Assembly (NCBI GenBank): GCA_965209095.1
Contig: OZ242381.1
Coordinates: forward strand, 4,126,630-4,190,629
Length of the DNA stretch: 64,000 nt
Direction of reading: 5' to 3'
Source of the DNA: Candidatus Poribacteria bacterium
GTDB lineage: Bacteria; Poribacteria; WGA-4E; WGA-3G
Shown: positions 1 to 61,756 of the stretch, in pieces
Numbering within the stretch: position 1 is the first letter of the stretch
Layout: each line of letters opens with the position of its first letter
Made by a program: the position numbers and the translations under genes
Notes under the pieces: generated by a model
The model's database searches: none
Told to the model about the DNA's origin: nothing
The model's input: the letters and a program-made list of their open reading frames with translations, nothing else

Positions 1-90
1 GTGCCCCGCCATCTATAACCAACAATTGCGGGGCACGGAGACCCCGCACTACAATGAACATGAAATGTTTGCCGAAAACTTTACACACCC
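1..90. repeat. Right half of a family-1 MITE-like element, truncated by the window edge. It has the internal GC hairpin gtgccccgc...gcggggcacgg and the terminal repeat TGCCGAAAACTTTACACACCC.
   Basis: Near-identical to positions 60441..60545. The terminal motif GGGTGTGTAAAGTTTTTGGCAAACA recurs in inverted orientation at several loci in the window. Confidence 0.6.
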
Positions 91-2553: not shown

Positions 2554-3411
2554 CTATTTTAGTTCAGGCCCGGGTGTTCGATTCCATTGCAATGGTTCAA
2601 CGTCCCCTTGATAATTTGGGTTGAGCTCTGCAATTCTTTCCCAATCTTCATCTGACCATTCCAATTTCTGCCGCATTCTCCCGATATGTGCCTGCATTGC
2701 TTCTGGTAATAAAGCAAAAAATGGATGATACCATAAGGTGATGACTGTGCGTCGTTCTATTGATTTATTGCTGTGTGATGCGTGTAGCAACCGAGAATCG
2801 CCGATAACAAGATCACCTGCCTTGACGGTGATATCTACCTCATCTGGATATTTCTGAAATGCAGGATGGTCTGCATTTTCAACCCGTTGTAGTTCCGCGC
2901 CGTGCGCATTTGGTAATATGTCGTGTAGTCGGTGTCTTGTAAGATGTGAGCCATTGATCACACGTAGGCATCCGTTATGTGGTGTGGTATCAACCAAATA
3001 ATACATTAGAAAAAGTTGTTGTGGTAATGCTGTGTAACTACAAGGATCGTTCCAACCCCACCAATCCTGATGCCAAAAAAGCGGAGGACTCTTCGGTGGT
3101 TTGCTAATAACATATCCTGAAGAGAATTTTGGTCGCAGGAAACCTAATGCCTCCATAGCAAGTAATGCGCGTGGATAGACGACCAATTCTGAAAACAGAG
3201 AGTGCGTATAAATACTAATCATACTCCCGGATGAACGGGTTGCAGCTAGTTGCTCTTCTGTCTGTGCCTCCAACAGCGTATCTGTAACTGAACGAAGTTG
3301 CATTATCATGTCATCTTCAAGAACATTCTCAACGACACAATAACCATCTGAGATCAATTGGTCGTATTTTTCTTTAGTTTTTTCAATTTCCATTTTAATT
3401 TTACCAGGCAA
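2554..3411 (-). CDS. Phytanoyl-CoA dioxygenase (PhyH) family Fe(II)/2-oxoglutarate oxygenase.
   Basis: 285-aa ORF. The WHQDW motif supplies the His-x-Asp of the facial triad, with downstream His residues. Similar to the second PhyH-like ORF at 44374..45108. Confidence 0.7.
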   Translation of the reverse strand: MPGKIKMEIEKTKEKYDQLISDGYCVVENVLEDDMIMQLRSVTDTLLEAQTEEQLAATRSSGSMISIYTHSLFSELVVYPRALLAMEALGFLRPKFSSGYVISKPPKSPPLFWHQDWWGWNDPCSYTALPQQLFLMYYLVDTTPHNGCLRVINGSHLTRHRLHDILPNAHGAELQRVENADHPAFQKYPDEVDITVKAGDLVIGDSRLLHASHSNKSIERRTVITLWYHPFFALLPEAMQAHIGRMRQKLEWSDEDWERIAELNPNYQGDVEPLQWNRTPGPELK

Positions 3412-5838: not shown

Positions 5839-6024
5839 GGGGATGTGTAAAGTTTTTGGCACTGCACGTAGGGGCAGGGTTTCCCCGCCCGATTCCCACC
5901 CCTTGCCACATTCCCATCCCAACCACTGCTGATGGATAGGATGTGTTCCAACGAGGGCGAGGGGACCTCGCCCCTACGATGTGTCTGAACGTGAGATAAC
6001 CTTTGCCAAAAACTTTACACACCC
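5839..6024. repeat. Complete family-1 MITE-like element (186 bp).
   Basis: Terminal inverted repeats are GGGGATGTGTAAAGTTTTTGGCA and TGCCAAAAACTTTACACACCC. The interior holds two GC-rich hairpins built on acgtaggggc...gcccctacg. The right end overlaps the ORF-track start of selA. Confidence 0.7.
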
Positions 6025-6092
6025 TCTCCTGGGTATATAAGTTGACATCTGATAGATTATCTGTTAAAATGAACAACATTGAAATATTCTTG

Positions 6093-19733: not shown

Positions 19734-19776
19734 TATAAATCTAATGCTTAGTCAACATCTGTTTGATAGTTCAATT

Positions 19777-19913
19777 GTAGGTCGGATAGAGGCACGAAAC
19801 CCGACAGGATAGCCACAATCATATATGTCCAAATCAACGTCTAATGCGCGTGGCAGAATACGCGTTTGGTATTCTGCATGATTTGTCGGGTTTCGTGCCT
19901 CTACCCGATCTAC
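19777..19913. repeat. Hairpin-type repeat with 29-bp arms (GTAGGTCGGATAGAGGCACGAAACCCGAC and its complement) around a 79-bp loop.
   Basis: Two mismatches in the arms. The loop carries ccaaatcaacgtctaatgcgcgt, the same motif found in the family-1 MITE at 60405. AGGCACGAAACC also occurs at 37040. Confidence 0.55.
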
Positions 19914-20270
19914 AAGTTAGGTGTTGACACAGCACTAACTAATAACTGCAAGTAACTTCTTAGTATCTCTTCGTCCAGAACATCTTCGTACAGAACATGT
20001 ATGTAACCCTATAATAATTGTAAACGTTAAAATGCATAGAATGGGTATGATTTATTCACACAAATACATAGTTATTAAGATGTCTTATTAATGGTAATTG
20101 GACACTTTGATGTCGTAACTACAGCGTTTACATGCTGTTTCTCCGAACGGGAACGAACAAAATTAGTTAGGTTAGAATAACCGTTCGGCATACCTTTTAG
20201 ATTACTATAGTTCACGCTCAGATCAGACCAGTATGTATAGCTCATGCAGAATCTGTAAAGGAGATTTCGG

Positions 20271-24848: not shown

Positions 24849-25047
24849 GGAGGGTGTGAAAAGTTTTTGATACTTGTCTGAACCAGGATTTTCAGGATTT
24901 ATAGATTTTCGGGATTTTTCTCATCAAGTCCTATTTCATAAAGACAACACCAAACATGCATCAAAAAGCCTGGATATGGTAATTCTGGTAATCTGTAAAT
25001 CCTGAAAATCCTGGTTCAGACAAGTGCTAAAAACTATACACCCCCCC
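24849..25047. repeat. MITE-like element with 52-bp terminal inverted repeats (a family-1 variant).
   Basis: Left end GGAGGGTGTGAAAAGTTTTTGATACTTGTCTGAACCAGGATTTTCAGGATTT. Right end AAATCCTGAAAATCCTGGTTCAGACAAGTGCTAAAAACTATACACCCCCCC. AAAAACCTTG occurs on both flanks but not immediately adjacent. A fragment (aatcctggttcagacaa) recurs at 60700. Confidence 0.65.
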
Positions 25048-32763: not shown

Positions 32764-32773
32764 CACCTTTTCA

Positions 32774-34702
32774 ATGTCAACACATGGTCATCAAACCTCA
32801 ACGAAGCATATCACAGGACGTTCACTTCTCTTAGGTGTCCTTCTCATACCAATCAATGTTTACTGGATGACAATCGTTGAGGTGAAATACTACTCTCTTG
32901 ACGGATCATGCCTTCCACTGTTTATTCAGCCTGTCTTTATCATGTTTGTGTGTGCTGTTGCCAATGTCTCGTTGAAACGTATAGCACCACAATATATGCT
33001 GCGTCAAGGTGAGTTATTGACTGTCTATATTATGGTGGCAATTTCCTGCACATTTGCTGGACACGACGCTATGCAGAATATGTTTGGCAGTATTGCTCAT
33101 CCATTCCGTTTTGCAACGGAAGAGAATGAATGGCAGACACTGTTTTTTCGGTATCTTCCATCTTGGCTTACCGTGTCAGATCCTCTGAGTCTACAAGGAT
33201 TTTATGAAGGTGATGCCAGTTTCTATACCAGCCATAATTTTTCTGTGTGGTTAAAACCGTTATTATATTGGGGACTCTTTTTTCTTACGATGATGTTTAT
33301 GATGCTATGCATCAACACACTTGTCCGCAAACGGTGGGCAGAACAGGAGAAATTGGCTTATCCGATCATACAACTTCCATTGCATTTATCAGAAGCAGGT
33401 GGCATTAGTCTGTTGAAGAATAGAATGATGTGGATAGGATTTACGATAGCAGTGATTATTGGTGTCATAAACGGGATCAATTATCTGTTTCCACAGTTTC
33501 CACTGATCCCGTATATCAAGCGGACAGCAGTTTTTCAAGACATCTTCACAGAACGACCGTGGAGTGCGATACGAGGGACTCGTATCTCCATATATCCGTT
33601 TGCTGTTGGGTTGGCATTTTTTCTACCACTGGATCTATCATTTTCGTGTTGGTTTTTCTTTGTTGTACGGTTAGCAGAATTTGTGGTTGCGGCTGCACTT
33701 GGCACCCGATATTTTCCTGCCTTAAATGAACAGGCTTACGGAGCTTGGGTTGCGCTATTCGTTCTTGCAGTGTGGGTAACTCGTAGTCATTTGAAAGGTG
33801 TATTGAAAAAGGCACTGTGGTTCAGTTCTGATATAGATGACTCAAATGAACCGATGTCATATCGTGCTGCGATGTTAGGTATTATCGGATCGCTTATTGC
33901 ACTTGGCATCTTTGCCAATATTGCAGGAATGGCTTTATGGATTGCAGGTATATTCTTCGGTGTATATTTTCTTCTATCATTTGCGATCACTCGTGTTCGC
34001 GCTGAACTCGGCACCCCACATGAAATCTATTATGTCAACCCACACGATATGTTGGCTACTGTAGGTGGAACGCGTCAGTTTGATACAAGCAGTCTTACAA
34101 TCATGTCACTGTTTTATTGGTTCAATCGAGGCTATCGTAATCACCCTATGCCGAATCAGATTGAAGCATTTAAGTTGGCAGAGTCAACTGGGATGGGGAA
34201 CCGTCGGTTGTGGGTTGCGATGCTCATTGCGATTGTGGTTGGTATTATAGCAACTTTTTGGGCGAATCTTGACATTACATTCCGTAATGGGGCAGTAGCA
34301 AAGGCAGGTGGATTCAAGGGATGGGTCGGTAGAGAGTCATTTGGTAGACTTCAACGTTGGTTACATAATCCATCTGAACCGAATGTTGTTGGTATTGGGT
34401 TTATGGGGATTGGTGCGTTATTGACATTTGTTATGATGTATATGCGGATGCATTTCTTGTGGTGGCCATTCCATCCTGCTGGTTATGCACTTGCGATTAG
34501 TTTTGCGATGGATTATTTCTGGTTTGCGTTCTTTGTCGCATGGTTCTTGAAGTTATTGATATTACGTCATGGGGGGCTGAAGTTACATCGTAAAGTTGCA
34601 CCTCTATTCTTAGGTTTGATTTTGGGCGATTATGTTATTGGTAGTGTTTGGGCTATTATAGGACCTGCAACAGGGTTGCGGACTTACAAGATATTCATCT
34701 AA
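32774..34702 (+). CDS. Polytopic membrane protein of unknown family. Paralog of 140..2083, lying 11 bp downstream of the Hcy-methyltransferase/MTHFR gene.
   Basis: 642 aa with about 14 TM segments. Shares many conserved blocks with the 140..2083 protein. Confidence 0.75.
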   Translation: MSTHGHQTSTKHITGRSLLLGVLLIPINVYWMTIVEVKYYSLDGSCLPLFIQPVFIMFVCAVANVSLKRIAPQYMLRQGELLTVYIMVAISCTFAGHDAMQNMFGSIAHPFRFATEENEWQTLFFRYLPSWLTVSDPLSLQGFYEGDASFYTSHNFSVWLKPLLYWGLFFLTMMFMMLCINTLVRKRWAEQEKLAYPIIQLPLHLSEAGGISLLKNRMMWIGFTIAVIIGVINGINYLFPQFPLIPYIKRTAVFQDIFTERPWSAIRGTRISIYPFAVGLAFFLPLDLSFSCWFFFVVRLAEFVVAAALGTRYFPALNEQAYGAWVALFVLAVWVTRSHLKGVLKKALWFSSDIDDSNEPMSYRAAMLGIIGSLIALGIFANIAGMALWIAGIFFGVYFLLSFAITRVRAELGTPHEIYYVNPHDMLATVGGTRQFDTSSLTIMSLFYWFNRGYRNHPMPNQIEAFKLAESTGMGNRRLWVAMLIAIVVGIIATFWANLDITFRNGAVAKAGGFKGWVGRESFGRLQRWLHNPSEPNVVGIGFMGIGALLTFVMMYMRMHFLWWPFHPAGYALAISFAMDYFWFAFFVAWFLKLLILRHGGLKLHRKVAPLFLGLILGDYVIGSVWAIIGPATGLRTYKIFI

Positions 34703-36954
34703 TCTGGTCGTGTTTTAATTTTCATTTGCAGTTCACCTGTTTCAACATTCCATTTATGAAACCATCTTGTATCAATATCAGTACTTATTAGACTTTCACC
34801 ACTTGGTAAGAACTCATAAGCATCTATCGGTCCTCCAACCGCTTCAATAGTAGCTTTGAGTTTTCCCGTATTTAAATCCCATACGTGAAGTAAAACAGGA
34901 TCTCCTTTGCTAATTAAAGTATTCCCATCTGGAGACATAATGATCTGCGAGTGACTATATCCGTTCTTCTCAAGTATTGAACGGAGTGTGCCAGTATCTG
35001 TTTCCCATAACCGAATAGTTTTGTCAAGACTGCCGCTAACCAAAGTTTTTCCATTTTTTGTAAATTCAAGGTAATGGATCCAAGATGTATGTCCTTCAAG
35101 AGTCGCACTTTGTTTAGTATCAAGATTATATAACCATATTGTGTCATCCGAACTTGCACTTGCAAGCTTATTTCCATTTTCTGTAAACCTTATGAGATTG
35201 ATCTTGCCTGTATGTCCTTCATAAGTTGCTATTGGTTGTGCGTTTTGCACCGATGATATGTCCCAAAGCAGAATCTTGTTATCATGACATGCACTTGCAA
35301 GTAATTTTCCATTGGAAGATAATTCCATTGTATGAACACCTGCGGTGTGTTCTTTGAGTGTTACCTTATGTTCACCTGTTTTCGTGTCCCACAGACGTAT
35401 TGTGCTGTCACGGCTTGCACTGAACAGCGTTTTGCCATCTGGTGAAAATGCAAGGTCATCAATCCAAGACGTATGTCCATTGAGTGTTGTCTTGAGTTTT
35501 CCATTTCTTGTGTTCCATAGTCGAATCTGACTGTTATTCCAACCGTTTCCTGTAGCGATCGTTTTGGCATCAGGAGATAGTGCAACAGAATATATTTGTG
35601 CGAATTCGTCTTTAATTGTCACTCTGTGTTTACCAGAATCTGCATTCCATAGAGCGATGTCGTTGTTACTTATACTAACAAAGGTTTTTCCATCCTTGGC
35701 AAAAAAAGTAGATTTAACAGGAGACTGATAGTAGACTGGTGTTTCATGGACTTCACTGAGTTTCGTTCCTTTACGTGGAATTTTCCCGATATTAGTATTA
35801 CCTGATAGTATTTTATTTAGAGGCGGTTGCAGGAAGACAATCACGTATTGCCATCCAGCAAAGGAATCTTCAACGATATAGGTTACAGTGCTGACATCTG
35901 GTGAAAATTTAATTGGAGCACTATTCCGAATCCGATCATCCGAGATCGTTCTCTTATGCTTTCCAGTTTTTACATCCCATATACGTATACTATTCCAATG
36001 TGTATCACTCATACTTGCTAACATATTCCCGTCGGGTGAAAAATCTAAAGTAGTAACTCCCGCAACAAATATATAAGGTTTTGAAAGTGTTTTTATGTGT
36101 TGTGCCTTACTTACATCCCACAGCAAAATTTCTTGGTAACTGCCACCAGCAAGAATGTTACCGTCAGGTGAAAAAGCGAGAGATTCAACACTGCCTCTAT
36201 GTCCGGTTAGAGAGTTTAGTCTTTTTCCTGTGTTTGGATTCCATAAGATTATTTCCTGAAAACCCGCACTTGCAAGGACCTTTCCATCTGGAGAAAATTC
36301 GGCATCATAAACTTCGTCTGTATGTCCTTCCAGAGTATGTTTTAGATTACCTGTGTTAATATCCCACAACGCAATTCTCTGAATTCCGGTTAATGCGATA
36401 GTATTACCGTCTGGTGAAAACGCGGTCAAATTGCTCGCAGATACTTTGATAGACTTTAGTAAATGACCTGTTTGGACATCCCAAACCCTTATCATATCAT
36501 CAGATCCTTCACTCGCGATTTTTTTACTGTCAGGAGAAAATAGAATGGAGTAAGTTACATCTGTTGGTTCAAATATTGATAGTATTTCTTCACCATTGAT
36601 TGGATTCCATAATTGAATTTCATCATTTCGGTTATTCACACTTGCTAATATATTTCCATCATGAGAAAACTCAACCATATCGTACCATCCACCATAGGGA
36701 TGTGTATCGTCTTTGATGGTTAACTTTTTTTCATAAGTGTGTGCGTCAAATAACCATATTTCATCTGTAGCTGCTATAGCAAATCGGTTTCCATCTGGAG
36801 AATACTCGAAATCCTTTATTGCAGAAGATTCCATGATACTTAGAGCATCAACTGTTATAGGAAGATGCATAATGACATAGAAGAATGAACATATTGAGAT
36901 TATGAAAACAAGATATGAGTTTAGAATGTATTGGTTGAATTTAATGCCTTTCAT
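34699..36954 (-). CDS. WD40-repeat beta-propeller protein with an N-terminal TM/signal anchor (751 aa).
   Basis: Many WD units of the type FSPDG..LAS.S.D..I.LWD. An N-terminal hydrophobic helix is present. The stop overlaps the stop of the convergent membrane gene. Confidence 0.8.
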   Translation of the reverse strand: MKGIKFNQYILNSYLVFIISICSFFYVIMHLPITVDALSIMESSAIKDFEYSPDGNRFAIAATDEIWLFDAHTYEKKLTIKDDTHPYGGWYDMVEFSHDGNILASVNNRNDEIQLWNPINGEEILSIFEPTDVTYSILFSPDSKKIASEGSDDMIRVWDVQTGHLLKSIKVSASNLTAFSPDGNTIALTGIQRIALWDINTGNLKHTLEGHTDEVYDAEFSPDGKVLASAGFQEIILWNPNTGKRLNSLTGHRGSVESLAFSPDGNILAGGSYQEILLWDVSKAQHIKTLSKPYIFVAGVTTLDFSPDGNMLASMSDTHWNSIRIWDVKTGKHKRTISDDRIRNSAPIKFSPDVSTVTYIVEDSFAGWQYVIVFLQPPLNKILSGNTNIGKIPRKGTKLSEVHETPVYYQSPVKSTFFAKDGKTFVSISNNDIALWNADSGKHRVTIKDEFAQIYSVALSPDAKTIATGNGWNNSQIRLWNTRNGKLKTTLNGHTSWIDDLAFSPDGKTLFSASRDSTIRLWDTKTGEHKVTLKEHTAGVHTMELSSNGKLLASACHDNKILLWDISSVQNAQPIATYEGHTGKINLIRFTENGNKLASASSDDTIWLYNLDTKQSATLEGHTSWIHYLEFTKNGKTLVSGSLDKTIRLWETDTGTLRSILEKNGYSHSQIIMSPDGNTLISKGDPVLLHVWDLNTGKLKATIEAVGGPIDAYEFLPSGESLISTDIDTRWFHKWNVETGELQMKIKTRPD

Positions 36955-37237: not shown

Positions 37238-37239
37238 GG

Positions 37240-39375
37240 TTATCTCCTTGGTTGTAGATTAGGATTGTCCAATTTCCAAAGTAGAATAGTACTGCCAACA
37301 CTTGCAATAGTTTTTTCATCTTTAGAAACTATAAATGTATCAATATAATCTGGTTGTGCGTCAAGGGTCAATTTTGGTTCCCACGTTTCTGTGTTCAAAA
37401 ACTCGATCATGTTTCCACTTATACTTACTAATGTATTTCTATCTGGGTAAAATGAAACTGGTTGATACCCAAATAGTGTTTTCTTATACGCTCCAGTCTT
37501 TGTATCCCATAACAGAGTATGTCCAAAATAACTTGTGGTTGCTACGGTTTCACCATCAGGAAAAAAGACTATTGAACTGACACTTTCTGTATGCCCTATA
37601 AGTGTAGCAATGAGTTCAAAAGTCTCTGTATTCCATAATCGTACTGTTTCGTCAAGACTTGCACTTGCTAAAATACTTTTATCGGGTGAGAAGACAATAA
37701 AATCCACACCACCAGTATGTCCTTTCAGCGTTGTTATATGTTCACCAGTATTGACATTCCATATTGGAATACGACCACCTCCCAGACCTATCAACATTTG
37801 ACTATCTGAAAAAAATTCAACGGAATTAACGTTGTAGTCCTTGATATCCATTGTCAATTTATGATCAGCTGTGCCTACATTCCAGAGTTCAAGTGTGGGT
37901 TCAGAACTTGTAGCACGACTGACTAAAGTTTTGCCATCAGGCGAAAAATGTAGTAACTGTAATCTACCTTTCTTACCTGTAGAAATTATCCTTTCTCCTT
38001 CACCCGTTTTTGTGTTCCACAATTGTATAATTGGAGGATCATTCCAATTATTTACCCTATTAATTCCAATTGCTACCATAATTCCATCTGAAGATATTGA
38101 AGCAACATCACCTGAATAGGTTCTAATTAGCTTTTGCGTATTTATATCCCAGATCTGTATATGGTTCAGATACCAACAGGCAATTGCATTTCCATCGTGA
38201 ATGATCATTGCATTAGATTGTACTGAGATATGTTTTTCATTGATTGGCGTATGTTCTCCTGTAGTAATATCCCATAGTCCCAGATCATTCGCGAGTTTTT
38301 TGCCGTCAGGTGAAAACACTAATGTGTTGTTTTCTGATTTGATATCAAGGAGCGTTTTTTCAATTTCTCTTGTATTCATATCCCATATATTGATTTTGTC
38401 TTGTTCGTAGCTTGCATATTTTTTCCAATTTGGAGAGATAAATATGCGTCCTTTATGTTCCCATGTAGGATTGCCGGTCCTAACATCCCACAATTTGGAG
38501 TTATTTTTGTGTATTGTTACTATCGTCCTATTGTCTGGAGAAAAAGCAATGAAATTGGTGTCATATAGACCAACATTAAATTTCTCTTTGAATGTTCTGA
38601 TATTTTTACCAGATTTCGTGTCCCATAACCGGAGCGTTCCATCATAGGTAAGACTAACGAGCATACGGTTATCTCGTGAAAAAGCAACAGAATAGACTAC
38701 GTCTTTATAGTTGAGAGGCTTTGATGGCATATTGAGTTTGTGAATCTGTTGACCGGTTTCTGCATTCCATATTCGAGATGTACCATCATCACTACCACTT
38801 GCCAACATACTATTGTCTGGTGAGAAGGAAATCGCTGTTACATCACTTGTATGTCCTTTAATGTTATTCATGTTCTCACCAGTGTTTGTATTCCACAATT
38901 TAATAGTCCTATCCTTGCTTGCAGTTGCAATTGTATTGCCATCAGATGCATACACAATACTCGTAATATCTTTTGTATGACCTTTTAGTGTTGTTCTGAG
39001 ATTTGCTTGGATTGGGTCATAAGATATATCCCATAATTCAACAGCCTTATCCGATGGATCATTAGCAGCAAACATCGTTCCATCAGGTGAAAAGACAATG
39101 TTTGACACATTTATAGGCAGTAGCCTAATTTCTTTGTATGTCGTTGCGTCATAAATCCATAAACCTATCGTACTTGGTATTATTATCTTTGTGCTATCTG
39201 GAGAAAAAACAATTTTATCTGTGATGTAGCCCTTTCCAATGCGTGCAATTGCACCTTCAGGTAATTCCCATTTTGAATATTCTTGGGTAAAACCGATTGA
39301 GAGTATTTGCATCATTGAGAGGATGATTGTGATAAAGTATTTCATGGATTTTAATTTACCTAATACAAAATTCAA
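37240..39375 (-). CDS. Secreted WD40-repeat beta-propeller protein (711 aa) with signal peptide.
   Basis: The N-terminal signal is MKYFITIILSMMQILS. Numerous WD40 units are present (GHT..V.S..FSPD...LAS.S.D.T.RLWN). Confidence 0.8.
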   Translation of the reverse strand: MNFVLGKLKSMKYFITIILSMMQILSIGFTQEYSKWELPEGAIARIGKGYITDKIVFSPDSTKIIIPSTIGLWIYDATTYKEIRLLPINVSNIVFSPDGTMFAANDPSDKAVELWDISYDPIQANLRTTLKGHTKDITSIVYASDGNTIATASKDRTIKLWNTNTGENMNNIKGHTSDVTAISFSPDNSMLASGSDDGTSRIWNAETGQQIHKLNMPSKPLNYKDVVYSVAFSRDNRMLVSLTYDGTLRLWDTKSGKNIRTFKEKFNVGLYDTNFIAFSPDNRTIVTIHKNNSKLWDVRTGNPTWEHKGRIFISPNWKKYASYEQDKINIWDMNTREIEKTLLDIKSENNTLVFSPDGKKLANDLGLWDITTGEHTPINEKHISVQSNAMIIHDGNAIACWYLNHIQIWDINTQKLIRTYSGDVASISSDGIMVAIGINRVNNWNDPPIIQLWNTKTGEGERIISTGKKGRLQLLHFSPDGKTLVSRATSSEPTLELWNVGTADHKLTMDIKDYNVNSVEFFSDSQMLIGLGGGRIPIWNVNTGEHITTLKGHTGGVDFIVFSPDKSILASASLDETVRLWNTETFELIATLIGHTESVSSIVFFPDGETVATTSYFGHTLLWDTKTGAYKKTLFGYQPVSFYPDRNTLVSISGNMIEFLNTETWEPKLTLDAQPDYIDTFIVSKDEKTIASVGSTILLWKLDNPNLQPRR

Positions 39376-40547: not shown

Positions 40548-40601
40548 TATGCACTCTAAAAGTGTCTGTAATTTTATCTTTGTTTTGTAAGCCAAGAATG
40601 T

Positions 40602-40913: not shown

Positions 40914-40942
40914 GAATTTCCTTATGATTATTTCATTAACAT

Positions 40943-47653: not shown

Positions 47654-47975
47654 TTTTCGTCCTATCTCCATTTGTATGCGGGGTCTGTCTCTATGACAAA
47701 CCCCGCATTTTCATTGTAACACATCTATCAAACCAACATTCCAATATATCAATACATAATCATATCAACATTTCGTTCCTCAATCAACGATATTTATCTA
47801 ATTGAGGGATGTGCATAAATATTTGACGCATCAACACAACAGCGACAGACTTCTGGTGCAGCTTATTTATAAAAAGCAGAATGCGCCAAATCAACGGTAT
47901 GAATGGGTGTGTAAAGTATTTGTCACCATAGTCATCAATTTCTTGAAAGGACATTGCATTTTTGATCTTTGAAAA

Positions 47976-49557: not shown

Positions 49558-50874
49558 CAGGGTTATTTAGTTTTCGGTATTTTAGTCGTTTTTTATCACA
49601 AACGTTAATAATTTTAGATACGCAGAAATAGCGTGAAAAATCACGCTATTTCTGCTATACTTCACCTTAAAAATCTTAACCCTTTGAGGTGAAAAATGAC
49701 AGAGAATAACTCTCGCCACTTGTTAGATAGATTAGCAGAAATCGAAGACCCGCGCAACGAAAAAGGAAAACGACATCCGTTGAATTCAATCCTTGGCCTT
49801 AACATTATTGGTTTTATGACTGGACATAAAGGATATACATCCACCGCAAAGTGGGCACGATCTCAACCAGATCTCGTCCAAGCACTCGGTTTTACACACG
49901 AGAAATCACCTTGTTCCGCAACGATACATAATGTTCTAAAAATATTAGATGCGGATACTGTTGAAAAGACATTTACAAACTGGGTAGAAGATGTTTGTCC
50001 AAGTCGGTCTGATTTAGCAGGATGTCTTGACGCAGTCGCTATAGACGGTAAAACGATGCGTGCCTCCAAAAAAAGTGGTGCGGCAATAAGCCATTTACTC
50101 TCCGTTGTTTCTCATGAGTTAGGGGTTACCCTGACACAACAAGGTATCAGGGACAAAACCAACGAAATACCGATTTCAACAGAGATCCTCAAAAACTTTG
50201 ATGTGAGTGGTAAAGTCATCACAACAGATGCGCTTTTGACACAGAAAACTTTCTGCCAAGAAATCATAGAGGGTGATGGAGACTATGTGCTCCCTGTCAA
50301 AAACAACCACCCCGACCTTTGCGATGATATCCAAAAACTCTTTCAAGATGTTCCTGACACACCTTCACAAGACGCTACACATCCTCTATTGGGAGACCCT
50401 ATTGACACTCACGAGACTTATGAAAAATCACATGGTAGAATTGAGACAAGATGCCTAAAAGCAAGCACAAGTCTCAACGCATATCTGGACTGGCCAGGGA
50501 TAGAACAGGTGATCCAATATCGTTATATTCACGAAAACCCAAATACAGGAGAAGAAACAACCAAAGTCACCTATGGTATTACAAGTCTGACACCCGAAGC
50601 AGCTACTGCCGAACGCTTACTTGAACTACGCCGTGGGCATTGGTCTATAGAGAACAAATCGCATTGGATCCGAGATACTCAACTTGGAGAAGACGCATCG
50701 TCTGTCCGATGCGGTGCTATTCCGCAGGTTATGGCTGCTTTGCGAAATGCAGCATTAGCAGTATTGAGATTTGATGGCGTTACAAGTATAGCTGATAAAA
50801 TAAAATATTATGCTTCAAAACCTTTACTCGCAGTTAACTTGATAACTGAATGTTTTTAAAACTAAATAACCCTG
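49558..50874 (+). mobile_element. Intact ISAs1-family insertion sequence (1317 bp) with 15-bp terminal inverted repeats and a 9-bp target-site duplication.
   Basis: Left inverted repeat CAGGGTTATTTAGTT (49558..49572). Right inverted repeat AACTAAATAACCCTG (50860..50874). Direct repeat TACCCGACC at 49549..49557 and 50875..50883. Confidence 0.75.
49696..50859 (+). CDS. ISAs1-family (H-repeat-associated, DDE_Tnp_1-like) transposase.
   Basis: 387 aa. VAIDGKTMRAS, TTDALLTQK and RRGHWSIENKSHWIRD are characteristic ISAs1 transposase blocks. Confidence 0.8.
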   Translation: MTENNSRHLLDRLAEIEDPRNEKGKRHPLNSILGLNIIGFMTGHKGYTSTAKWARSQPDLVQALGFTHEKSPCSATIHNVLKILDADTVEKTFTNWVEDVCPSRSDLAGCLDAVAIDGKTMRASKKSGAAISHLLSVVSHELGVTLTQQGIRDKTNEIPISTEILKNFDVSGKVITTDALLTQKTFCQEIIEGDGDYVLPVKNNHPDLCDDIQKLFQDVPDTPSQDATHPLLGDPIDTHETYEKSHGRIETRCLKASTSLNAYLDWPGIEQVIQYRYIHENPNTGEETTKVTYGITSLTPEAATAERLLELRRGHWSIENKSHWIRDTQLGEDASSVRCGAIPQVMAALRNAALAVLRFDGVTSIADKIKYYASKPLLAVNLITECF

Positions 50875-50959
50875 TACCCGACCTACAACACTTCATAAAT
50901 ATGAACAAATGTGATAAAATACAACCAAAATACCTAAAACTAAATAGTCCCGTGAGAAA

Positions 50960-51060
50960 GGGGTGAGTAAGTTTTTGGTATCAATTTCCAGAGTGCTTAC
51001 AAAGCACCAAATCAACAAGACCAATGCTAATTAGCATTCCCCGTCTACGAATATCCGATG
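50960..51060. repeat. Degenerate family-1 MITE fragment (GGGTGAGTAAGTTTTTGGTA ... ccaaatcaacaagaccaatgctaattagcatt).
   Basis: Shares the terminal motif and the internal ccaaatcaac motif with the copy at 60358..60545. Confidence 0.4.
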
Positions 51061-53822: not shown

Positions 53823-54017
53823 CTGATACCTCAATAACGAATTAGTCTTTTTAATATATAGACGCGATTTTGAGGAAAAGAATTGCATTTTTTTGAAAAA
53901 AGCGTATTCTCAAAGAAATGTATGGGTTTTAGTTCAGAGAAGTCAGAAGTTGTATGTAGGGTAGTATGAAATGGTATTACATACCAGGTAGGTGAATATT
54001 GAACTATTTATTATTCA

Positions 54018-54160
54018 AACCCAAGTTGCTACCTATAAGTTTTAAGACCTGGAAAGACCTTTTTTAATGAAAAAACTGATAATTAGCCAATATTTTGTAG
54101 CGTAAACTTCCAGTTTGCGCCTCTTATGACACAATCTGGCAGATTGTGCTACAAGGTAGC
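54018..54160. repeat. Family-2 MITE-like element (143 bp) between ECF-fusion genes 1 and 2.
   Basis: Ends AACCCAAGTTGCTACCTATAAG and CTACAAGGTAGCAACTTGAGTT, with the internal cacaatctggcagattgtg palindrome. Confidence 0.6.
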
Positions 54161-54168
54161 AACTTGAG

Positions 54169-57060
54169 TTATTCAAGTCGAATCTTATACACGCCGCTAC
54201 CGTAAGTGCCAGCGTAAATAAAACCGTCAACTACTGCTAAGGATGAAACCTGTTTGTGAAGAGAACCAATCGACTTCCAATGCTGTTTTTCCTCTATCCA
54301 TTGGAAAACACTTGTAGGTGTGCTGACATACACCTCAGTCCCATCTGTTCCTATTGATGTAGCAGATGTTTCATCCAGACCCTCGTTGATGGTTATCCAT
54401 GTATTGCCTCCATCCTTGGAACGAAATACCCCGTTGTTCCAAAAGCTTGCATATAAGGTTGTATCGACCCACTTGAGATCAGACAAACCGTCATCAATCA
54501 TATCTGTTATGTGAATAGGTTCCCAACGGTGTTCTTTAAAACGGTAGATTTCATTGCCCGCGGTGCCATGAATTCCTGTAACCGCAATCACACTCTCTTT
54601 GTTGGCAGACAACATCGAGATTTCGCGATGTTGTTCCAAGCCAAGTTTGGTAAGACCCATTTTCTGATCCCACCGGAAGACCCCACTTGACCATGTGCCC
54701 ATATAAAAGGTATTGCCAACTACATCCATACTTCGAATTCCATACATGTCCCTATCTGTGAAAAGTTCGACCAAAGTGTTATTTTCTCTATTCAACGTAT
54801 AGACACTATCTCCCTCACGACCAGAATAAGGAGGAATATATTTATCATTACCAAAGTAAGCACCAATGTAGAGCTCTCCATTTGAAACACAAATGGATTC
54901 AACACCACATTTGCCCTGATTTAAAGGATCGTTTACAGGCAACCATGTATCTCCACCGTCGGCTGAATAGACAAGCTTGCTACCAACAACGGTGTATAGT
55001 TTATCACCAATTATCTCTAATTTGCTTACATCTGTATTTATTATGCCAGTGCTGCATTCTACCCAAGAATCCCCTGCATCTGTTGTGCGAAAGACTCCAT
55101 TGTCCGATGTGCCTACAAAAACAGTATTATCATTGATTGGTAACAATGTTAAAACATCATCATACATGACTCCATCATTGATTGATATCCAGGAATCACC
55201 CATATCATTCGAAAGATAGATCAAACCGTCAGAAGTGCCGGCATATAGCCTCTCACCTTGTACGGTAATTGTCTGAACGTCATCACCTTCTTCTCCTACT
55301 TTTTCTGGGGTGATGAGCGTCCATGTGTCGCCTCCGTCATTTGAACGGAAGAGCCCAGATTCTTTGCCTATACTTCCACTCAAAAAAAGTAAATGTTTCA
55401 TAGAAGCTAACGACTCAACATATAAATCATAAGAAGAATCTTGCTTAGGTGAAGGATTTGATTTTGGTTTATCTTTCGAATTATTTTCCGATTCAACCCC
55501 ATCTGAATGCACAATGACAGTTGGGTTGACTGGTGTCCACGAGTCGTCATTTTCCATTCTACGAAAGAGCCCCTTTTTTGTTGCAACGACTAGTAGTGCT
55601 GTACCAACACTTGCGAGTTTAAAAACCGGCATCGGGTTTAGGGCAAAGGGTCTAACAATAGGCGAGTTGCTATCTAAGAGACGCCCATGTAACATAATTC
55701 CGAGTCCCTCATTGATTTGTACCCATGAATTACCATCTGACTGCCAAACACCTGAGAGATGTGTACTAACATAGATGTGGTCACCATGAATCACAATATC
55801 AGTGATTATTGCAGGTGCTTTGAAAGCAGATACAGGTTGCCAGGTGTTGCCAATATCAGTAGAAATGTATAATGCCTCCCCCGTGCTAACATAGATCATA
55901 TCCCCCATTTCTGCGATTGCAGTAACTACCATGGGGGACCTACTTGGGTGGGTGTGTAATCCAGTATTAACAGGTGTCCAACTATTTCCATGATCTGTGG
56001 AGCGGAAAACTCCTGCCCCATCTGTCCCCGCAAGAAGCACGCCATTAGAGGTGTTATAAAGCGTAGTTATCTTGCCACCGTAAGGGCCATTCGTCTGTCT
56101 CCATCTGCCTTTAAACTTGCTGCTTTCTGCACCATCTGATTGTGCTGCTGCAGGCAGTGATGTATCCGGTTCCTGATCTGTTCCATCATTTTTACTGAGT
56201 ACATCAGAACGACTAACCTGATTGATTATTGCAGGTTTGGCAGGGGATTCAAAGACTACTCGTGTGTCAACGATTTCAATCGTTGGTTTTGATGTTGCCT
56301 CTATACTATACGGTTTCTGAAACCGAATTATATTTTGCGCACCAAAACCTATCAGTAAAACAACTAAAATGGTTGATGCAGCAGAAACTGCTAAAGGTAC
56401 TAAAGGTTTACTTCCTGATGGCGTTACTGGGTTGAGCCGTGATATTTCCTTCCTGATGTTTTCTGTCAATTGTGTTGGCAGTTGGAAACTGCTAAGATTT
56501 TCTTGTATCATTGCTTCCTCCTTCTTTAACCGCTCTCTGGCTCGGTGAAGTCGACTCCGTACCGTATTGGGAGACATTCCCAAAAACTTGCCAATCTCTT
56601 CACAGGACATTTCAGCGAGGTAATAGAGACTCATCACTGTACGGTCACTTTCCTGTAGCTTGCTGAGCAATTTATGGACAATTGTTCGGTGTTTTTCTTT
56701 TGCTGCTTCTTCACGTTGTTCGGTCATATATTCTGAATAATATACCTCTTCCAACTCAACTGGATTTGTATCATCAATTGATTGCGTTTCAAGTTTTTTC
56801 TTCCGATGCCACGCAATGCACTTTCGATTCGTAACGACATAAAGCCATCCTGCAAATTGTTTGTAGTGTGTGAGGGTCGAGAATTTTTGATAGGCAGTGA
56901 TGAAAACATCTTGCGTAATTTCTTGTGCGATGTGAAAATCACCAATTTTCTGCCACGCAAGGGTGTGTACCTGCTCTTGGTATTTTTCTACAAGTTGGGC
57001 AAAAGCGTGTTGATCACCTTCTAATGTGCGTTGAATTAGTTCAGCATCATCGTTTTTCAT
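54169..57060 (-). CDS. ECF sigma factor, TM helix and periplasmic BNR/Asp-box beta-propeller fusion (paralog 2, 963 aa).
   Basis: The N-terminal sigma regions 2 and 4 are as in paralog 1. The TM helix is LVPLAVSAASTILVVLLIGFGA. There are at least seven S-x-D-x-G-x-[ST]-W Asp-box motifs (STDHGNSW, STDIGNTW, SNDGGDTW, SNDMGDSW, TTDAGDSW, SADGGDTW, SKDGGNTW). Confidence 0.8.
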   Translation of the reverse strand: MKNDDAELIQRTLEGDQHAFAQLVEKYQEQVHTLAWQKIGDFHIAQEITQDVFITAYQKFSTLTHYKQFAGWLYVVTNRKCIAWHRKKKLETQSIDDTNPVELEEVYYSEYMTEQREEAAKEKHRTIVHKLLSKLQESDRTVMSLYYLAEMSCEEIGKFLGMSPNTVRSRLHRARERLKKEEAMIQENLSSFQLPTQLTENIRKEISRLNPVTPSGSKPLVPLAVSAASTILVVLLIGFGAQNIIRFQKPYSIEATSKPTIEIVDTRVVFESPAKPAIINQVSRSDVLSKNDGTDQEPDTSLPAAAQSDGAESSKFKGRWRQTNGPYGGKITTLYNTSNGVLLAGTDGAGVFRSTDHGNSWTPVNTGLHTHPSRSPMVVTAIAEMGDMIYVSTGEALYISTDIGNTWQPVSAFKAPAIITDIVIHGDHIYVSTHLSGVWQSDGNSWVQINEGLGIMLHGRLLDSNSPIVRPFALNPMPVFKLASVGTALLVVATKKGLFRRMENDDSWTPVNPTVIVHSDGVESENNSKDKPKSNPSPKQDSSYDLYVESLASMKHLLFLSGSIGKESGLFRSNDGGDTWTLITPEKVGEEGDDVQTITVQGERLYAGTSDGLIYLSNDMGDSWISINDGVMYDDVLTLLPINDNTVFVGTSDNGVFRTTDAGDSWVECSTGIINTDVSKLEIIGDKLYTVVGSKLVYSADGGDTWLPVNDPLNQGKCGVESICVSNGELYIGAYFGNDKYIPPYSGREGDSVYTLNRENNTLVELFTDRDMYGIRSMDVVGNTFYMGTWSSGVFRWDQKMGLTKLGLEQHREISMLSANKESVIAVTGIHGTAGNEIYRFKEHRWEPIHITDMIDDGLSDLKWVDTTLYASFWNNGVFRSKDGGNTWITINEGLDETSATSIGTDGTEVYVSTPTSVFQWIEEKQHWKSIGSLHKQVSSLAVVDGFIYAGTYGSGVYKIRLE

Positions 57061-57121
57061 TGGACACCTTCATACAGAAAAATAGAAATGCAATTACAAA
57101 TAATAGACTCTCTATAATTAA

Positions 57122-57157
57122 AAACGCGATTTTATGGTATAGAATTGCACATTTTTG
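57122..57157 (-). promoter_or_regulatory. Candidate ECF-type promoter for paralog 2. On the coding strand it reads TGTGCAATTCT-N13-AAAATCGCGTTT. A near-identical motif lies upstream of paralog 1 at about 53861..53895.
   Basis: Coding-strand sequences: paralog 2 attttttcaaaaatgtgcaattctataccataaaatcgcgttt; paralog 1 ttttttcaaaaaaatgcaattcttttcctcaaaatcgcgtct. ECF promoters typically pair an AA-containing -35 with a CGTC-containing -10. Confidence 0.4.
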
Positions 57158-57270
57158 AAAAAATTGCAATTTTGGGGGAAAAACGATAATTTAAAAAAAA
57201 GAGAAGAGGATTTAGGCAGAATTATAAAAAAGCACACCTACTAATAGGCGCACATTATGATTTACTGGTA

Positions 57271-57290
57271 GGCGCGCCTGGAAGCGCGCC
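57271..57290. other. GC-only stem-loop GGCGCGC-ctggaa-GCGCGCC in the intergenic region between ECF-fusion genes 3 and 2. A second copy at 60599..60618 is called as a terminator.
   Basis: A 7-bp all-GC stem in an AT-rich background, with no clear U-tract on either strand. Confidence 0.4.
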
Positions 57291-57330
57291 TAAAAAGAGT
57301 AATGTAAATTGCAAATCAACTATAAGCAGC

Positions 57331-60159
57331 TTACTTTTCAATTTGAATACGATGGACACCTGCTTGAGTGCCAGCGTAGAGGAAACCGTCCAATACCGCT
57401 AAGGATTGAACTGGTAAACTTAGCGAACCCAACTGTTCCCACTTCTCATCTTTATGGAGCCACTTGAAAACCCCATGCTGCGTTGTGCCGATGTAGAAGT
57501 CAGTGCCATCAATCTCTACAGTTTCGATTGATACCTGTTCTATACCACTGTTTAATTGAGTCCAAGTATTACCATCGTCTAATGACCGTATTAGTCCTTC
57601 TTGACCAGACAGTAAGTAAAGTTTATTGTCAATCTTTCTTGATGCTGCGAACCGCCTATGCGCCTTTTTACCCTTTATTTGTTCCCACTGCGCTTGGTGG
57701 CCTTGCAGACAGAAAAATTCGTTTCGCTGTGTCCTTGCATAGATATTAGCATCGCTTACCGTAATGTCAGTGATAAATTGACCATTTAATCCAAGATTTA
57801 GCCACGAGTCCCAACCTTCATTCCAAAGGAAAACACCTTGTCCTTGTGTGCCAACATAAAACGTCGTATCTACAATATGCATACTTTCTATCCCGTACGC
57901 TTCTCTATCAGTTGTAATTTCAATCAATGCGTTGTTCTGTTCATCTAATTGGAAAACACCACCAACGACTCCCCCATGACTGTTAGGAGCAAATCTTAAG
58001 GCACCAATGTACAATCTTCCATTCAAAGCAGAAATCTCTGCAAAGTGAAAATCATACGGTTTAGGCGAGTTCTCAATTTGTTCCCACTTATCTCCACCAT
58101 TTGTACTATATAGAAGTCTACCTTCTACAGTAAAAGCATAAATTCTGTCTCTCAAAACTTCCAAATCGACAACTGAAGTGCCCATTATTCCTTTATCTGC
58201 TTCCACCCACGAATTACCTCCATCTGTCGTGCGAAAAATGCTTCCTTCAAGTGTAGTGGCGAAAACTGTATCTGCACTAATTGCCACTAATTCCTTACTC
58301 ATTCCATCTGTTAGATCTTTGCCAACGGGTGTCCAAGAATCACCTTTGTCATTCGAACGGAAAACACTTCCACCAAAAGTACTGGCGTACAGTGTAGATT
58401 CAAAAACTGCCAACGCTTCAACGGTTCGTTTCATTTCTTTAGCGGTGATACGTGTCCAAGAATCACCTTCATCATCAGATCGAAATAAACCTTTGTCTTT
58501 ACCCATATATACACCAATATATAGTAAATCATCCATAGAAGCAATTGAGTCCACTCGAATTCCTGCAGGAAAGAGCGGTCTTGGAGGCGGATCAAATCCC
58601 GATTCAATTTGCGCTTTAATGAATGGTTCCTCGTCAATGGGTTGCGCACTAAATCCTGAATTGATTGGTTGCCACCTATCTTCAGTTGCTTTTTTGCGAA
58701 AAGCACCATCCTCTGTCCCAACAACAAGGGTGGTACCAATATTTGCAAATTCACGGATCCGTACATCTATCAGACCATCGTTCATTGGTGTCCAAGACTT
58801 CTCATCATCTGAATACCATACACCTCCCACATCCCCACGTCCTGGATATGTACTGATGTATATACGGTCACCAATAATTACGATACCAGAAATTGTGCTA
58901 TCCTGTGGATCGGTTGGAACATAATGCCATGTTTTCCCAGTATCGGTTGACTTATATAAATCCCCGATAACACTTGCGTAGAATGTATCCTCTTTTTGTG
59001 TAAATGCCAAAACATTTATTTCAAGATCTTCGTATATGTCAGGTACTTCCACATTCGCTGACACCCAAGAATCACCGAGATCAGTTGAACGAAAAATTCC
59101 GTGATTCATTGTCCCAGCTAAAAGTATTCCCTCAGAGGTCGCAAAAAGTGTACTGATATCTCCTCCATAAGGACCGTTGGTCTGACTCCATTGTGCTTTT
59201 GACGTTGAATTTTCTGCATCATCCGATTGTGCTGCTGCAAGCAGTGATGTACCCGGTTTCTGCTCTGTTCCATCATTGTTAATGAGAACATCAGAACGAC
59301 TAACCTGATTGTTTATTGCAGGTTTGACAGGGGATTGCAAGACTATTGGAGTATCTACGATTTCAATCGTTGGTTTTGATGTTGCCTCTATACTATACGG
59401 TTTCTGAAACCGAATTATATTTTGCGCACCAAAACCTATCAGTAAAACAACTAAAATGGTTGATGCAGCAGAAACTGCTAAAGGTACTAAAGGTTTACTT
59501 CCTGATGGCGTTACTGGGTTGAGCCGTGATATTTCCTTCATGATGTTTTCTGTCAATTGTGTTGGCAGTTGGCAACTGCTAAGGTTTTCTTGAATCATTG
59601 CTTCCTCCTTCTTTAACCGCTCTCTGGCTCGGTGAAGTCGACTTTTAACCGTGTTCGGAGATACCCCCAAAAACCTACCAATCTCTTCACACGTTAAGCC
59701 TGCAAGGTAATGCATCGTTACGACTGTCCGTTCACTCTCTCCAAGTTTACTGATCAGTTTTCGAACAATTGCTCTCCGATTTTGATTCGCTGCTTCTTCA
59801 CGTTGACGAGACGTATATTCGGAATAATACACCTCTTCTAATTCCATTGGGTCTGTCTCCTCCAGAGATTGTAATTGCGGTTTTTTCTTCCGGTGCCACA
59901 TGTTACACTTGTTACTGGTAATGACGTAGAGCCATCCCGCAAATCGGTTGTGATGTGTGAGGGTTGCGAGTTTTTGATACGCAGTGACGAAGGCATCTTG
60001 TGTTATCTCTTGTGCGATGTGGAAATCACCAATTTTCTGCCACGCCAAAGCGTGTATCTGTTCTTGGTATTTTTCTACAAGTGCAGCAAAGGCGTGTTGA
60101 TCACCTTCAAGTGTGCGTTCAATCAATTCAGCATCATTATGTTTCATGGAACACCTCAC
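57331..60159 (-). CDS. ECF sigma factor, TM helix and periplasmic BNR/Asp-box beta-propeller fusion (paralog 3, 942 aa).
   Basis: Sigma regions 2/4, TM helix and Asp-box motifs (STDLGDSW, STDTGKTW, SDDEGDSW, SNDKGDSW, TTDGGNSW, STNGGDKW, SLDDGNTW). The juxtamembrane segment is about 97% identical at DNA level to paralog 2. Confidence 0.8.
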   Translation of the reverse strand: MRCSMKHNDAELIERTLEGDQHAFAALVEKYQEQIHALAWQKIGDFHIAQEITQDAFVTAYQKLATLTHHNRFAGWLYVITSNKCNMWHRKKKPQLQSLEETDPMELEEVYYSEYTSRQREEAANQNRRAIVRKLISKLGESERTVVTMHYLAGLTCEEIGRFLGVSPNTVKSRLHRARERLKKEEAMIQENLSSCQLPTQLTENIMKEISRLNPVTPSGSKPLVPLAVSAASTILVVLLIGFGAQNIIRFQKPYSIEATSKPTIEIVDTPIVLQSPVKPAINNQVSRSDVLINNDGTEQKPGTSLLAAAQSDDAENSTSKAQWSQTNGPYGGDISTLFATSEGILLAGTMNHGIFRSTDLGDSWVSANVEVPDIYEDLEINVLAFTQKEDTFYASVIGDLYKSTDTGKTWHYVPTDPQDSTISGIVIIGDRIYISTYPGRGDVGGVWYSDDEKSWTPMNDGLIDVRIREFANIGTTLVVGTEDGAFRKKATEDRWQPINSGFSAQPIDEEPFIKAQIESGFDPPPRPLFPAGIRVDSIASMDDLLYIGVYMGKDKGLFRSDDEGDSWTRITAKEMKRTVEALAVFESTLYASTFGGSVFRSNDKGDSWTPVGKDLTDGMSKELVAISADTVFATTLEGSIFRTTDGGNSWVEADKGIMGTSVVDLEVLRDRIYAFTVEGRLLYSTNGGDKWEQIENSPKPYDFHFAEISALNGRLYIGALRFAPNSHGGVVGGVFQLDEQNNALIEITTDREAYGIESMHIVDTTFYVGTQGQGVFLWNEGWDSWLNLGLNGQFITDITVSDANIYARTQRNEFFCLQGHQAQWEQIKGKKAHRRFAASRKIDNKLYLLSGQEGLIRSLDDGNTWTQLNSGIEQVSIETVEIDGTDFYIGTTQHGVFKWLHKDEKWEQLGSLSLPVQSLAVLDGFLYAGTQAGVHRIQIEK

Positions 60160-60357
60160 AAATAGACTAATCTTTTAATATAAAGATGCTATTTGGTTTA
60201 TGAAGGTTGCATTTATCAGAAAAAGTACGGATTGAAAGAGAAAGACTAATTTTGTGCAGCTTCTCTCCGTGAAAATTATGATAAAATTTCTTTAATGGAA
60301 AGTTTTGCTTTAAAAGGGTAGCATATAGTTGGACAATTGCCAACTATAGTAAATCAG

Positions 60358-60545
60358 ATGGATATGTAAAGTTTTTGGCAAACATCTCACTGGTGATTGT
60401 AGTGCCAAATCAACGTCAAATGCGCGTATGGCATTTGTCGGGGTCTCTGTGCCCCGCAATTATTGGTAGATTAAAGGTAGCGGGGCACGGAGCCCCCGCA
60501 CTACAATGGATGGTCCGTAGTTTGTGCCAAAAGCTTTACACACCC
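60358..60545. repeat. Complete family-1 MITE-like element (188 bp) upstream of ECF-fusion paralog 3.
   Basis: Terminal repeats TGTAAAGTTTTTGGCAAACA and TGTGCCAAAAGCTTTACACACCC. Internal hairpin gggtctctgtgccccgc/gcggggcacggagcccc. ccaaatcaacgtcaaatgcgcgt motif present. Confidence 0.7.
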
Positions 60546-60588
60546 AATCAGATTTCATGCTTTTAAAGTGGTTGGAAATGATTCGTGC

Positions 60589-61455: not shown

Positions 61456-61556
61456 TACGGTCTATCCTCCTTTATTATTTACATAATTTACTATAAGAAC
61501 GACTTGTGCCAGTTAACAATATGTTTATTATGTATTCACACATATTTGATTTGTCA

Positions 61557-61639
61557 TATAAACATATCGTCCCTACGGGACTAAAGAGGGTGTTAAAGAC
61601 GTTTTTCTATAAACATATCGTCCCTACGGGACTAAAGAG
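61557..61639. promoter_or_regulatory. Two direct copies of a 32-bp sequence (TATAAACATATCGTCCCTACGGGACTAAAGAG), each containing the palindrome GTCCCtacGGGAC, 51 bp apart and upstream of the lipoprotein gene.
   Basis: Perfect copies at 61557..61588 and 61608..61639. Palindrome-containing direct repeats are typical of dimeric regulator operators. Confidence 0.45.
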
Positions 61640-61756
61640 CGTTCAAAAAAATAGAAATACGGCCAAAACCATCTATTTATGTGAAACAATGTTTAACATA
61701 AAGTTATTTAGCACAACTCGTTATAAGAGAAAATGCGTAAGTCCTATTGTTATACT

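Follow-up and report, generated by a model that had tools for sequence, protein, structure and literature searches.

The short repeats scattered through a 64-kb stretch of Candidatus Poribacteria DNA (the window; 39.6% G+C) very probably form a family of miniature elements that the DDE transposase of an ISKra4-group insertion sequence (prokaryotic Mutator-like, p-MULT 4) mobilises in trans and would direct to promoters. A sequence-only reading of the same DNA had proposed that a non-coding, non-autonomous transposon family has proliferated here. Our analysis supports this proposal through target-site duplications, termini shared with an insertion sequence (IS), a pair of filled and empty sites, and copies outside the window.

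Miniature elements in the window

As a query for the terminus we used the 21-bp sequence GGGTGTGTAAAGTTTTTGGCA with up to three mismatches, and shuffled sequence served as the control. The terminus matched eight times in the window versus 0.00 times in the shuffles. The matches lie at 70-90(-), 5841-5861(+), 6004-6024(-), 24852-24872(+), 25025-25045(-), 47905-47925(+), 60360-60380(+) and 60525-60545(-), and raising the tolerance to four or five mismatches added none in the window. They pair up into three complete elements of 184-194 bp. The partial copies number three: a half that runs off the window edge, a truncated end and a half that has degenerated.

The complete 186-bp element at 60360..60545, with termini at 60360-60380 and 60525-60545, is flanked by an exact 8-bp target-site duplication (AATCAGAT, 60352-60359 and 60546-60553). 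It folds into a whole-element hairpin (-79.9 kcal/mol, z -7.6), and its core is an inverted pair of GTAG plus GC-rich hairpins in which the left arm carries an added CCAAATCAACGTCAAATGCGCGT module. Its relatives are L078:1034-1187 (87%) and elements in L041, L044 and L005. The 184-bp element at 5841..6024 (termini 5841-5861 and 6004-6024) represents a second core subfamily. It too has an exact 8-bp duplication (TCTCCTGG, 5833-5840 and 6025-6032) and folds as a whole (-83.6 kcal/mol, z -7.1), and it is 82% identical over 187 bp to L060:49-234. The third complete element, at 24852..25045, is a variant of 194 bp. Its inverted arms extend over 65 nt and are 83% complementary, its whole-element hairpin has z -12.7, and its relatives are L061:2995-3192, L090:4475-4651 and L071. 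The termini of this variant have diverged (three mismatches apiece), and its flanks hold no clean 8-9 bp duplication. It is flanked instead by a longer imperfect direct repeat, ATATAA...AAAAACCTTG, at 24836-24851 and 25048-25069.

Positions 1..90 contain the right half of an element of the 60358 type, as we call the copy at 60360 after the start first proposed for it. This half ends in a right terminus at 70-90, is 79-88% identical to the 60358 copy and has the same relatives (L078, L041, L044 and L005). The truncated copy at 47905..47941 (+) consists of a lone left terminus with two mismatches, followed by at least ~20 nt of subterminal sequence; the subterminal homology to elements of other genomes covers ~36-49 nt. 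The copy adjoins a CCAAATCAACGGTATGAA module of another repeat. The degenerate left half at 50960..51052 (+) has the terminus GGGGTGAGTAAGTTTTTGGTA, with one indel and two mismatches, and a core that is 72-82% identical to element cores in L005, L085, L095 and L012. A right-hand partner was not found for the termini at 47905 and 50960 with up to six mismatches allowed. In addition, positions 5098-5170 contain aGGTGTGTAAtATTcTGtaCA and then TAGTAGTGCATGGTCTGTGTGCCCC; this segment, which has seven mismatches and was missed by the terminus search, is a probable decayed copy of the 60358 type.

The sequence-only reading had placed full copies at 5839..6024 and 60358..60545, a right half at 1..90, a long-terminal-repeat variant at 24849..25047 and fragments at 47905 and 50960, and had given them no coding capacity. 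Each of these features was recovered, the boundaries now being those given above, and the ORFs that overlap the 60358 copy are spurious ones of 63 aa or less. Scans of the window against Rfam (gathering thresholds) and for tRNAs returned nothing; thus, the element hairpins are not known RNA families.

The autonomous partner

An IS of 1.43-1.46 kb has the same termini as the short elements, is flanked by 8-9 bp duplications and encodes a single transposase of 428-448 aa. Among the matches listed, inverted terminus pairs lie 1,430-1,459 bp apart at 13 loci, and the 428-448 aa ORF is intact and uninterrupted in 14 IS copies, with 51-100% protein identity. The copy at L021:4555-6013, for instance, has perfect 25-bp inverted repeats and one 439-aa ORF. 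This ORF matches the NCBIfam model NF033572 (ISKra4 family transposase) with 247 bits, the cutoff being 205, across positions 26-422 of the 422 in the profile, and it also matches Pfam UPF0236. In the transposase ORFs the blocks VS.DG, GDGA.WIWNL and IESACKHVV are invariant, as are D, D and E blocks that are candidates for a DDE catalytic triad, and Cys residues are clustered near the N-terminus. Transposase lineages that are 51-75% identical all have the same 21-bp terminus. The putative partner is widespread in Candidatus Poribacteria, and a tblastn search with its transposase found no homolog in the window.

Three full IS copies in one Poribacteria genome (L021, L025 and L036) are 99.8-99.9% identical, which indicates recent activity in that genome; these are complete insertion sequences and not miniature elements. 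For the source genome of the window, recent activity had been claimed by the sequence-only reading, and this claim found no support: the window lacks a transposase, and copies of the same subfamily are just 79-88% identical. The search for an autonomous partner, which that reading had recommended together with a check for target-site duplications, was successful, as was the check, at both of the best window copies.

What the short elements share with the IS is confined to their ends. The two match over the terminal 21-29 bp only, and across 183 ends the information content is 1.4-2.0 bits at positions 1-21 and at most 0.26 bits from position 22 onward. Thus, the only sequence common to all copies and to the autonomous element is the 21-bp terminus. 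Among the matches listed, the related short elements measure 103-512 bp. We considered whether they are internal deletions of the IS, and this is true for one of about 60 (L049, 1035 bp); the others share the termini alone.

Transposition has left footprints at many of these loci. Exact duplications of 8 or 9 bp flank 24 of the 57-62 terminus pairs among the matches listed: 13 of the 15 elements of 1,430-2,793 bp and 11 short ones, both best window copies included. By chance, an exact 8-bp match is expected at ~1.5e-5 per pair. There is also a filled and an empty version of one site. In L001, a full IS (362-1814) with the 9-bp duplication TATGTCATC splits the ortholog of a window gene for a PhyH-family dioxygenase, 2554..3411(-). 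The L001 flanks align to window positions 3393-3107 and 3114-2555, their 8-bp overlap being the sequence duplicated in L001; the empty target site is thus found in the window, as a single TATGTTAT(T) at 3107..3114. We found no empty-site ortholog for the 5841 or 60360 copy; the sole syntenic locus, L160, has a full IS.

Predicted promoters at the tips

We defined a sigma-70 promoter as TTG..., a spacer of 16-18 nt and TAnnnT, directed outward and starting 15-20 nt past an element tip. Ends with mutually unrelated flanks were counted, 181 altogether, and flank windows shifted 30-80 nt outward served as the control. The promoters reported here are consensus matches, not mapped transcription starts. 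Among the matches listed, 63 of the 181 ends (35%) have an outward promoter, compared with 9 of 1081 shifted controls (0.8%). TTGAC starts at flank position 17 in 20 of the 181 ends, at positions 16-18 in 30 and at positions 15-20 in 38, over a background of 0.0012 per position; the reverse-complement motif shows no peak. The shorter TTGA begins at positions 15-20 in 48 ends, 40 of which also have TAnnnT after a spacer of 16-18 nt (mostly 17). Many -10 boxes of the tip promoters are TATAAT with an extended TG, and the promoters point away from the element. A promoter is present on at least one side of 28 of 38 short elements and 12 of 19 long ones among the matches listed, and approximately one-quarter to one-third of the elements have no recognisable promoter at either end. 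Full elements have promoters next to either end relative to the transposase gene.

All three complete copies in the window follow this distance rule. The predicted selA promoter (6042..6070, plus strand; TTGACA, N17, TG-extended TAAAAT) begins 17 nt past the 6024 tip, and selA itself was identified by PF03841 with 534 bits. The 24852-25045 element sits between two divergent promoters. On its left, TTGACA at 24835 on the minus strand is 16 nt from the tip; on its right, TTGACA-N17-TATACT at 25065-25093 on the plus strand is 19 nt from the tip and upstream of a short-chain dehydrogenase gene. Lastly, a candidate sigma-70-type promoter at 60315..60343 on the minus strand, TTGGCA-N17-TACCCT, lies 16 nt from the 60360 tip. 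It is a weak consensus match, and it faces a gene for a fusion of an ECF sigma factor with a beta-propeller, 57331..60159(-). L160 and the window are syntenic across selA, and in L160 the end of a full IS is found 16 nt upstream of TTGACA-N17-TAAAAT, before the selA ortholog. The full IS of L160 and the miniature element of the window appear to target the same selA promoter.

The fusion gene belongs to a cluster. Window positions 51975-60225 hold three tandem paralogs of 637, 963 and 942 aa in which an ECF sigma factor is joined to a beta-propeller of the Sortilin/BNR type. A conserved ~45-nt motif that resembles an ECF-type promoter precedes each of them.

We considered three other explanations for the repeats and their location. 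According to the first, the elements are themselves a source of promoters or terminators, as the sequence-only reading had suggested: an outward TTTACA would act as the -35 box with a -10 box in the flank, and the hairpin would act as a terminator. TTTACA does lie 5 nt from each tip, TAnnnT is present at the matching spacer in 15% of flanks versus 5% at random locus positions, and there is a 10/12 hybrid match at 60370..60343 on the minus strand. However, the enrichment is just about two-fold when neighbouring flank positions are the reference, and base composition can explain it because the native -35 box is immediately preceded by this AT-rich zone. Around the copies, promoter-like matches are no more numerous than in shuffles, and the promoters that are complete and near consensus are located outside the elements. 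The hairpins formed by whole elements, although very stable, are not followed by a U-tract. We consider this explanation unlikely. The relationship seems to be the reverse of the one suggested, in that the elements lie ~16 nt upstream of outward sigma-70 promoters that were already there.

The second explanation is that insertion into AT-rich intergenic DNA is random, and that the copies which spare, improve or insulate a promoter are the ones that survive. The flanks are indeed AT-rich, insertions into genes would be purged, one full IS is found inside a gene (L001), and the elements without a recognisable promoter also fit. Selection for tolerance, however, predicts a broad spread and not a peak of 1-3 nt at flank position 17. 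Moreover, two of the three near-identical recent copies, L025 and L036, have the full promoter pattern at the rule position, which argues for a choice made at integration and not for later selection; the third, L021, has just the -35 box, TTGACA at flank position 18, with no correctly spaced -10. The same fixed distance has also been reported for related transposases, in the case of TnGBS experimentally (as cited in PMC3942029). Random insertion is therefore a very unlikely account. Promoter targeting by the ISKra4-type transposase would account for the location of the repeats at gene boundaries, an observation of the sequence-only reading that was borne out.

Cores and nested repeats

The cores of the short elements fall into at least six multi-member clusters that are connected by common modules. 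They are mosaics of other short repeats, mainly of inverted pairs of GTAG plus GC-rich hairpins, so that several repeat families are nested within one another. This composition turns each element into one long hairpin. Such doublets make up the cores of the 60360, 1-90 and 5841 copies, and the 24852-type subfamily has none. A 402-bp element of L005 contains in series the modules that are found apart at window positions 60360, 50960 and 19775.

A similar doublet exists by itself in the window. The palindromic repeat at 19775..19915 (z -10.9) has 32-nt arms that begin with TTGTAGGTCGG, that is, GTAG and a hairpin. It lacks GGGTGTG termini, and no duplication is visible. A module of 23 nt is common to this repeat and the 60358 copy, and one of 41 nt to this repeat and the core of the L005 element. 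As GTAG-hairpin pairs without GGGTGTG termini are also present at L160:244-412 and L036:6250-6380, we read 19775-19915 as a putative separate, REPIN-like repeat that is outside the family and also serves as cargo within miniature elements. The sequence-only reading had related this hairpin (19777..19913) to the family; the module shared with the 60358 copy upholds part of that claim, whereas the missing GGGTGTG termini mark a different type of repeat.

A GTAG start followed by a palindrome is the hallmark of REP sequences. The element cores and 19775-19915 are inverted GTAG-hairpin doublets as REPINs are; the difference is that here the doublets are cargo inside ISKra4-bounded elements. We know of no 8-9 bp duplications in REP/RAYT systems and of no REPINs with DDE-type terminal repeats. 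Thus, although the doublets occur both in the cores of the 60358, 1-90 and 5841 copies and at sites without GGGTGTG termini, it is extremely improbable that the family consists of REP/REPIN-type repeats moved by a RAYT (Y1) transposase with incidental GGGTGTG ends, since it is defined by 21-bp termini that are identical to those of a DDE IS and abutted by 8-9 bp duplications, and since it includes the 24852-type subfamily. For 19775-19915 itself, the REP/RAYT explanation may be right.

Distribution

We scanned genomes, one per species, with a degenerate form of the terminus and found at least 104 stretches that contain it in public genomes; the matches listed come from Candidatus Poribacteria (101), Acidobacteriota (2) and one unclassified organism. 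A metagenome scan added 58 further stretches, and a scan of viral contigs found no terminus. Thus, the copies are not restricted to the window. They are also dispersed: among the matches listed, 181 ends at 104 loci have no flanks in common. Many of the metagenome contigs stop 77-99 nt from a terminus, as is typical of a repeat that breaks assemblies. Similarity between the window and other stretches extends to 82% identity over 3.3 kb of chromosome OY282386.1 (L103), 70-72% over ~6 kb of L160 and 76% across one gene of L001.

In three Acidobacteriota-like metagenome contigs of 59-64% G+C (L113, L137 and L139), the 21-bp terminus pattern adjoins an ISKra4-like transposase that is ~23% identical to the Poribacteria transposase. 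The terminal sequence may therefore be conserved far beyond Poribacteria. As the same 21-mer is found beside so divergent a transposase, the terminus alone cannot tell which transposase acts on it.

A model for promoter-targeted miniature elements

Our model starts with the transposase of the ISKra4-type partner, which would bind the 21-bp termini of a miniature element and then excise or copy it. Integration would follow at approximately -52 relative to the transcription start, so that the duplication would span roughly -52 to -44. The site could be found in one of two ways: the transposase may read the promoter DNA directly, or it may contact promoter-bound RNA polymerase, as has been proposed for TnGBS. 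Either way, genes and core promoters would stay intact, and copies would for this reason accumulate at gene boundaries.

Much of this behaviour has precedents. TnGBS and ISLre2 (p-MULT 3) spare genes by inserting ahead of sigmaA promoters, 15-17 bp before the -35 box, and the junctions of 13 ISKra4-group elements have a promoter 13-17 bp away (Guerillot et al., 2014; PMC3942029). Within that survey, integration at promoters is a trait of the ISKra4 group that the ISAzba1 and ISMich2 groups lack (PMC3942029). The ISKra4 group has a single ORF, whereas a -1 frameshift is required in the ISMich2 group. A published signature motif between the transposase domains N1 and N2 is linked to promoter targeting. 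For the relatives it is established that the transposase is a Mutator-like DDE enzyme and that its N-terminal domain binds the inverted repeats. In TnGBS and ISLre2 the inverted repeats are asymmetric, and insertion therefore takes one orientation only; elements with near-perfect inverted repeats have promoters on both sides (PMC3942029).

The partner IS described here resembles the ISKra4 group in its NF033572 match, its single ORF, its near-perfect inverted repeats starting with GGG, its 8-9 bp duplications and its targeting of promoters on either side of the element. The window copies differ from the group in being non-coding, in measuring 184-194 bp and in sharing only the 21-bp termini. 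With TnGBS and ISLre2 the Poribacteria elements share the rule of insertion upstream of promoters. They differ in that the partner transposase is distant (the ISLre2 model gives 75.5 bits, with a cutoff of 200) and in that promoters are found at either end.

The short elements have the features of MITEs: they are short and non-coding, their termini match an IS, their duplications have the parent's length (8/9 bp) and their copies are dispersed. Classical MITEs such as Correia/CREE, RUP, Nezha and MITEAba12 are likewise short, non-coding and intergenic, with IS-derived terminal inverted repeats, target-site duplications and whole-element hairpins (PMC10969869). Those elements are described as targeting short motifs or AT-rich DNA (PMC10969869), whereas here a promoter at a fixed distance sets the site. 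The 2014 survey makes no mention of miniature derivatives and does not list Poribacteria among the host phyla (PMC3942029), and ISKra4, ISLre2 and promoter targeting are all absent from a review of prokaryotic MITEs published in 2024 (PMC10969869). Our own non-exhaustive search for MITEs of Poribacteria or of the ISKra4 group turned up no account of this family or of miniature derivatives. Thus, we have apparently come upon an undescribed MITE family of a known IS group with a known, unusual targeting mode.

These results extend a rare mode of targeting, that of TnGBS, ISLre2 and ISKra4, to non-autonomous miniature elements and to an uncultivated phylum of sponge symbionts. Each intact terminus predicts a sigma-70 promoter ~16 nt away, which may aid annotation where there are no transcript data, and the breaks that these repeats cause in short-read assemblies make them useful for assembly diagnostics. 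We also considered, as a doubtful extension of the model, that the promoter-seeking MITEs are mobile cis-regulatory cassettes in Poribacteria. If so, insertion would systematically bring hairpin or REPIN-like cargo to the position (~-52) that suits an UP element or an upstream activator site. The cargo could insulate genes from upstream read-through, or add or remove regulator sites at many genes, and the mosaic cores would reflect selection among cargos. A weaker version is more likely, namely that the tips provide a promoter map at single-nucleotide resolution for an uncultivated phylum.

Neighbouring ISAs1 elements and other repeats

The window also contains an apparently intact ISAs1-family IS at 49564-50946, with 50-nt inverted repeats and a 387-aa transposase (NF033564, 232 bits), and a separate ISAs1 fragment at 48647-48970. 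The sequence-only reading had put copies of the family inside an ISAs1 remnant; we found instead that the pieces at 47905 and 50960 flank the element and the fragment. Because of this adjacency we considered the window ISAs1 as the partner of the short elements, and rejected it: its 50-nt repeats begin with TATTTAGTTTTCGG, which is unrelated to GGGTGTGTAAAG. The degenerate half at 50960 begins 14 bp past the right inverted repeat of the ISAs1 element, and L028:1849-1934 has the same junction of an ISAs1 end with the start of a miniature element. An ISAs1-type end lies ~6-17 nt from a GGGTGTG tip at no fewer than five loci (at least L028, L037, L044, L055 and L064) in addition to the window (50946/50960), which suggests that one of the two kinds of element targets the other. 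At L102:2474-5266 there is a nested insertion: a GGGTGTG-bounded IS that has a 9-bp duplication is split by an ISAs1-type element, which is homologous to window 49558-50310.

Several other repeats were observed in the window. At 37068-37269, a 34-nt unit that includes the hairpin CGGGGTTAGAAACCCC is present in at least five tandem copies between two large WD40-like repeat ORFs on the minus strand (34699..36954 and 37240..39375); similar units are present at L033:4955-5063 and within a 684-bp GGGTGTG-bounded element at L103:3887-4570. An interspersed repeat of AGTCCCGTAGGGAC hairpins at 61545-61643 is 81-88% identical to sequences in L004, L033, L036, L052 and L088 and 74% identical to one in L001, and it forms a tandem array at L036:6040-6230. 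The segment at 54008-54172 is shared by L007, L052 and L053 (76-86%), and that at 8379-8495 is 88% identical to a segment within an 867-bp element of L053. Positions 41099-41171 have a module in common with the element cores of four loci. Finally, 25980-26085 and 40961-41244 contain two inverted-repeat pairs (38 nt at 89% and 30 nt at 83%) that are ~15 kb apart; these bracketing repeats may delimit a larger segment, 25980-41244, that is mobile or invertible.
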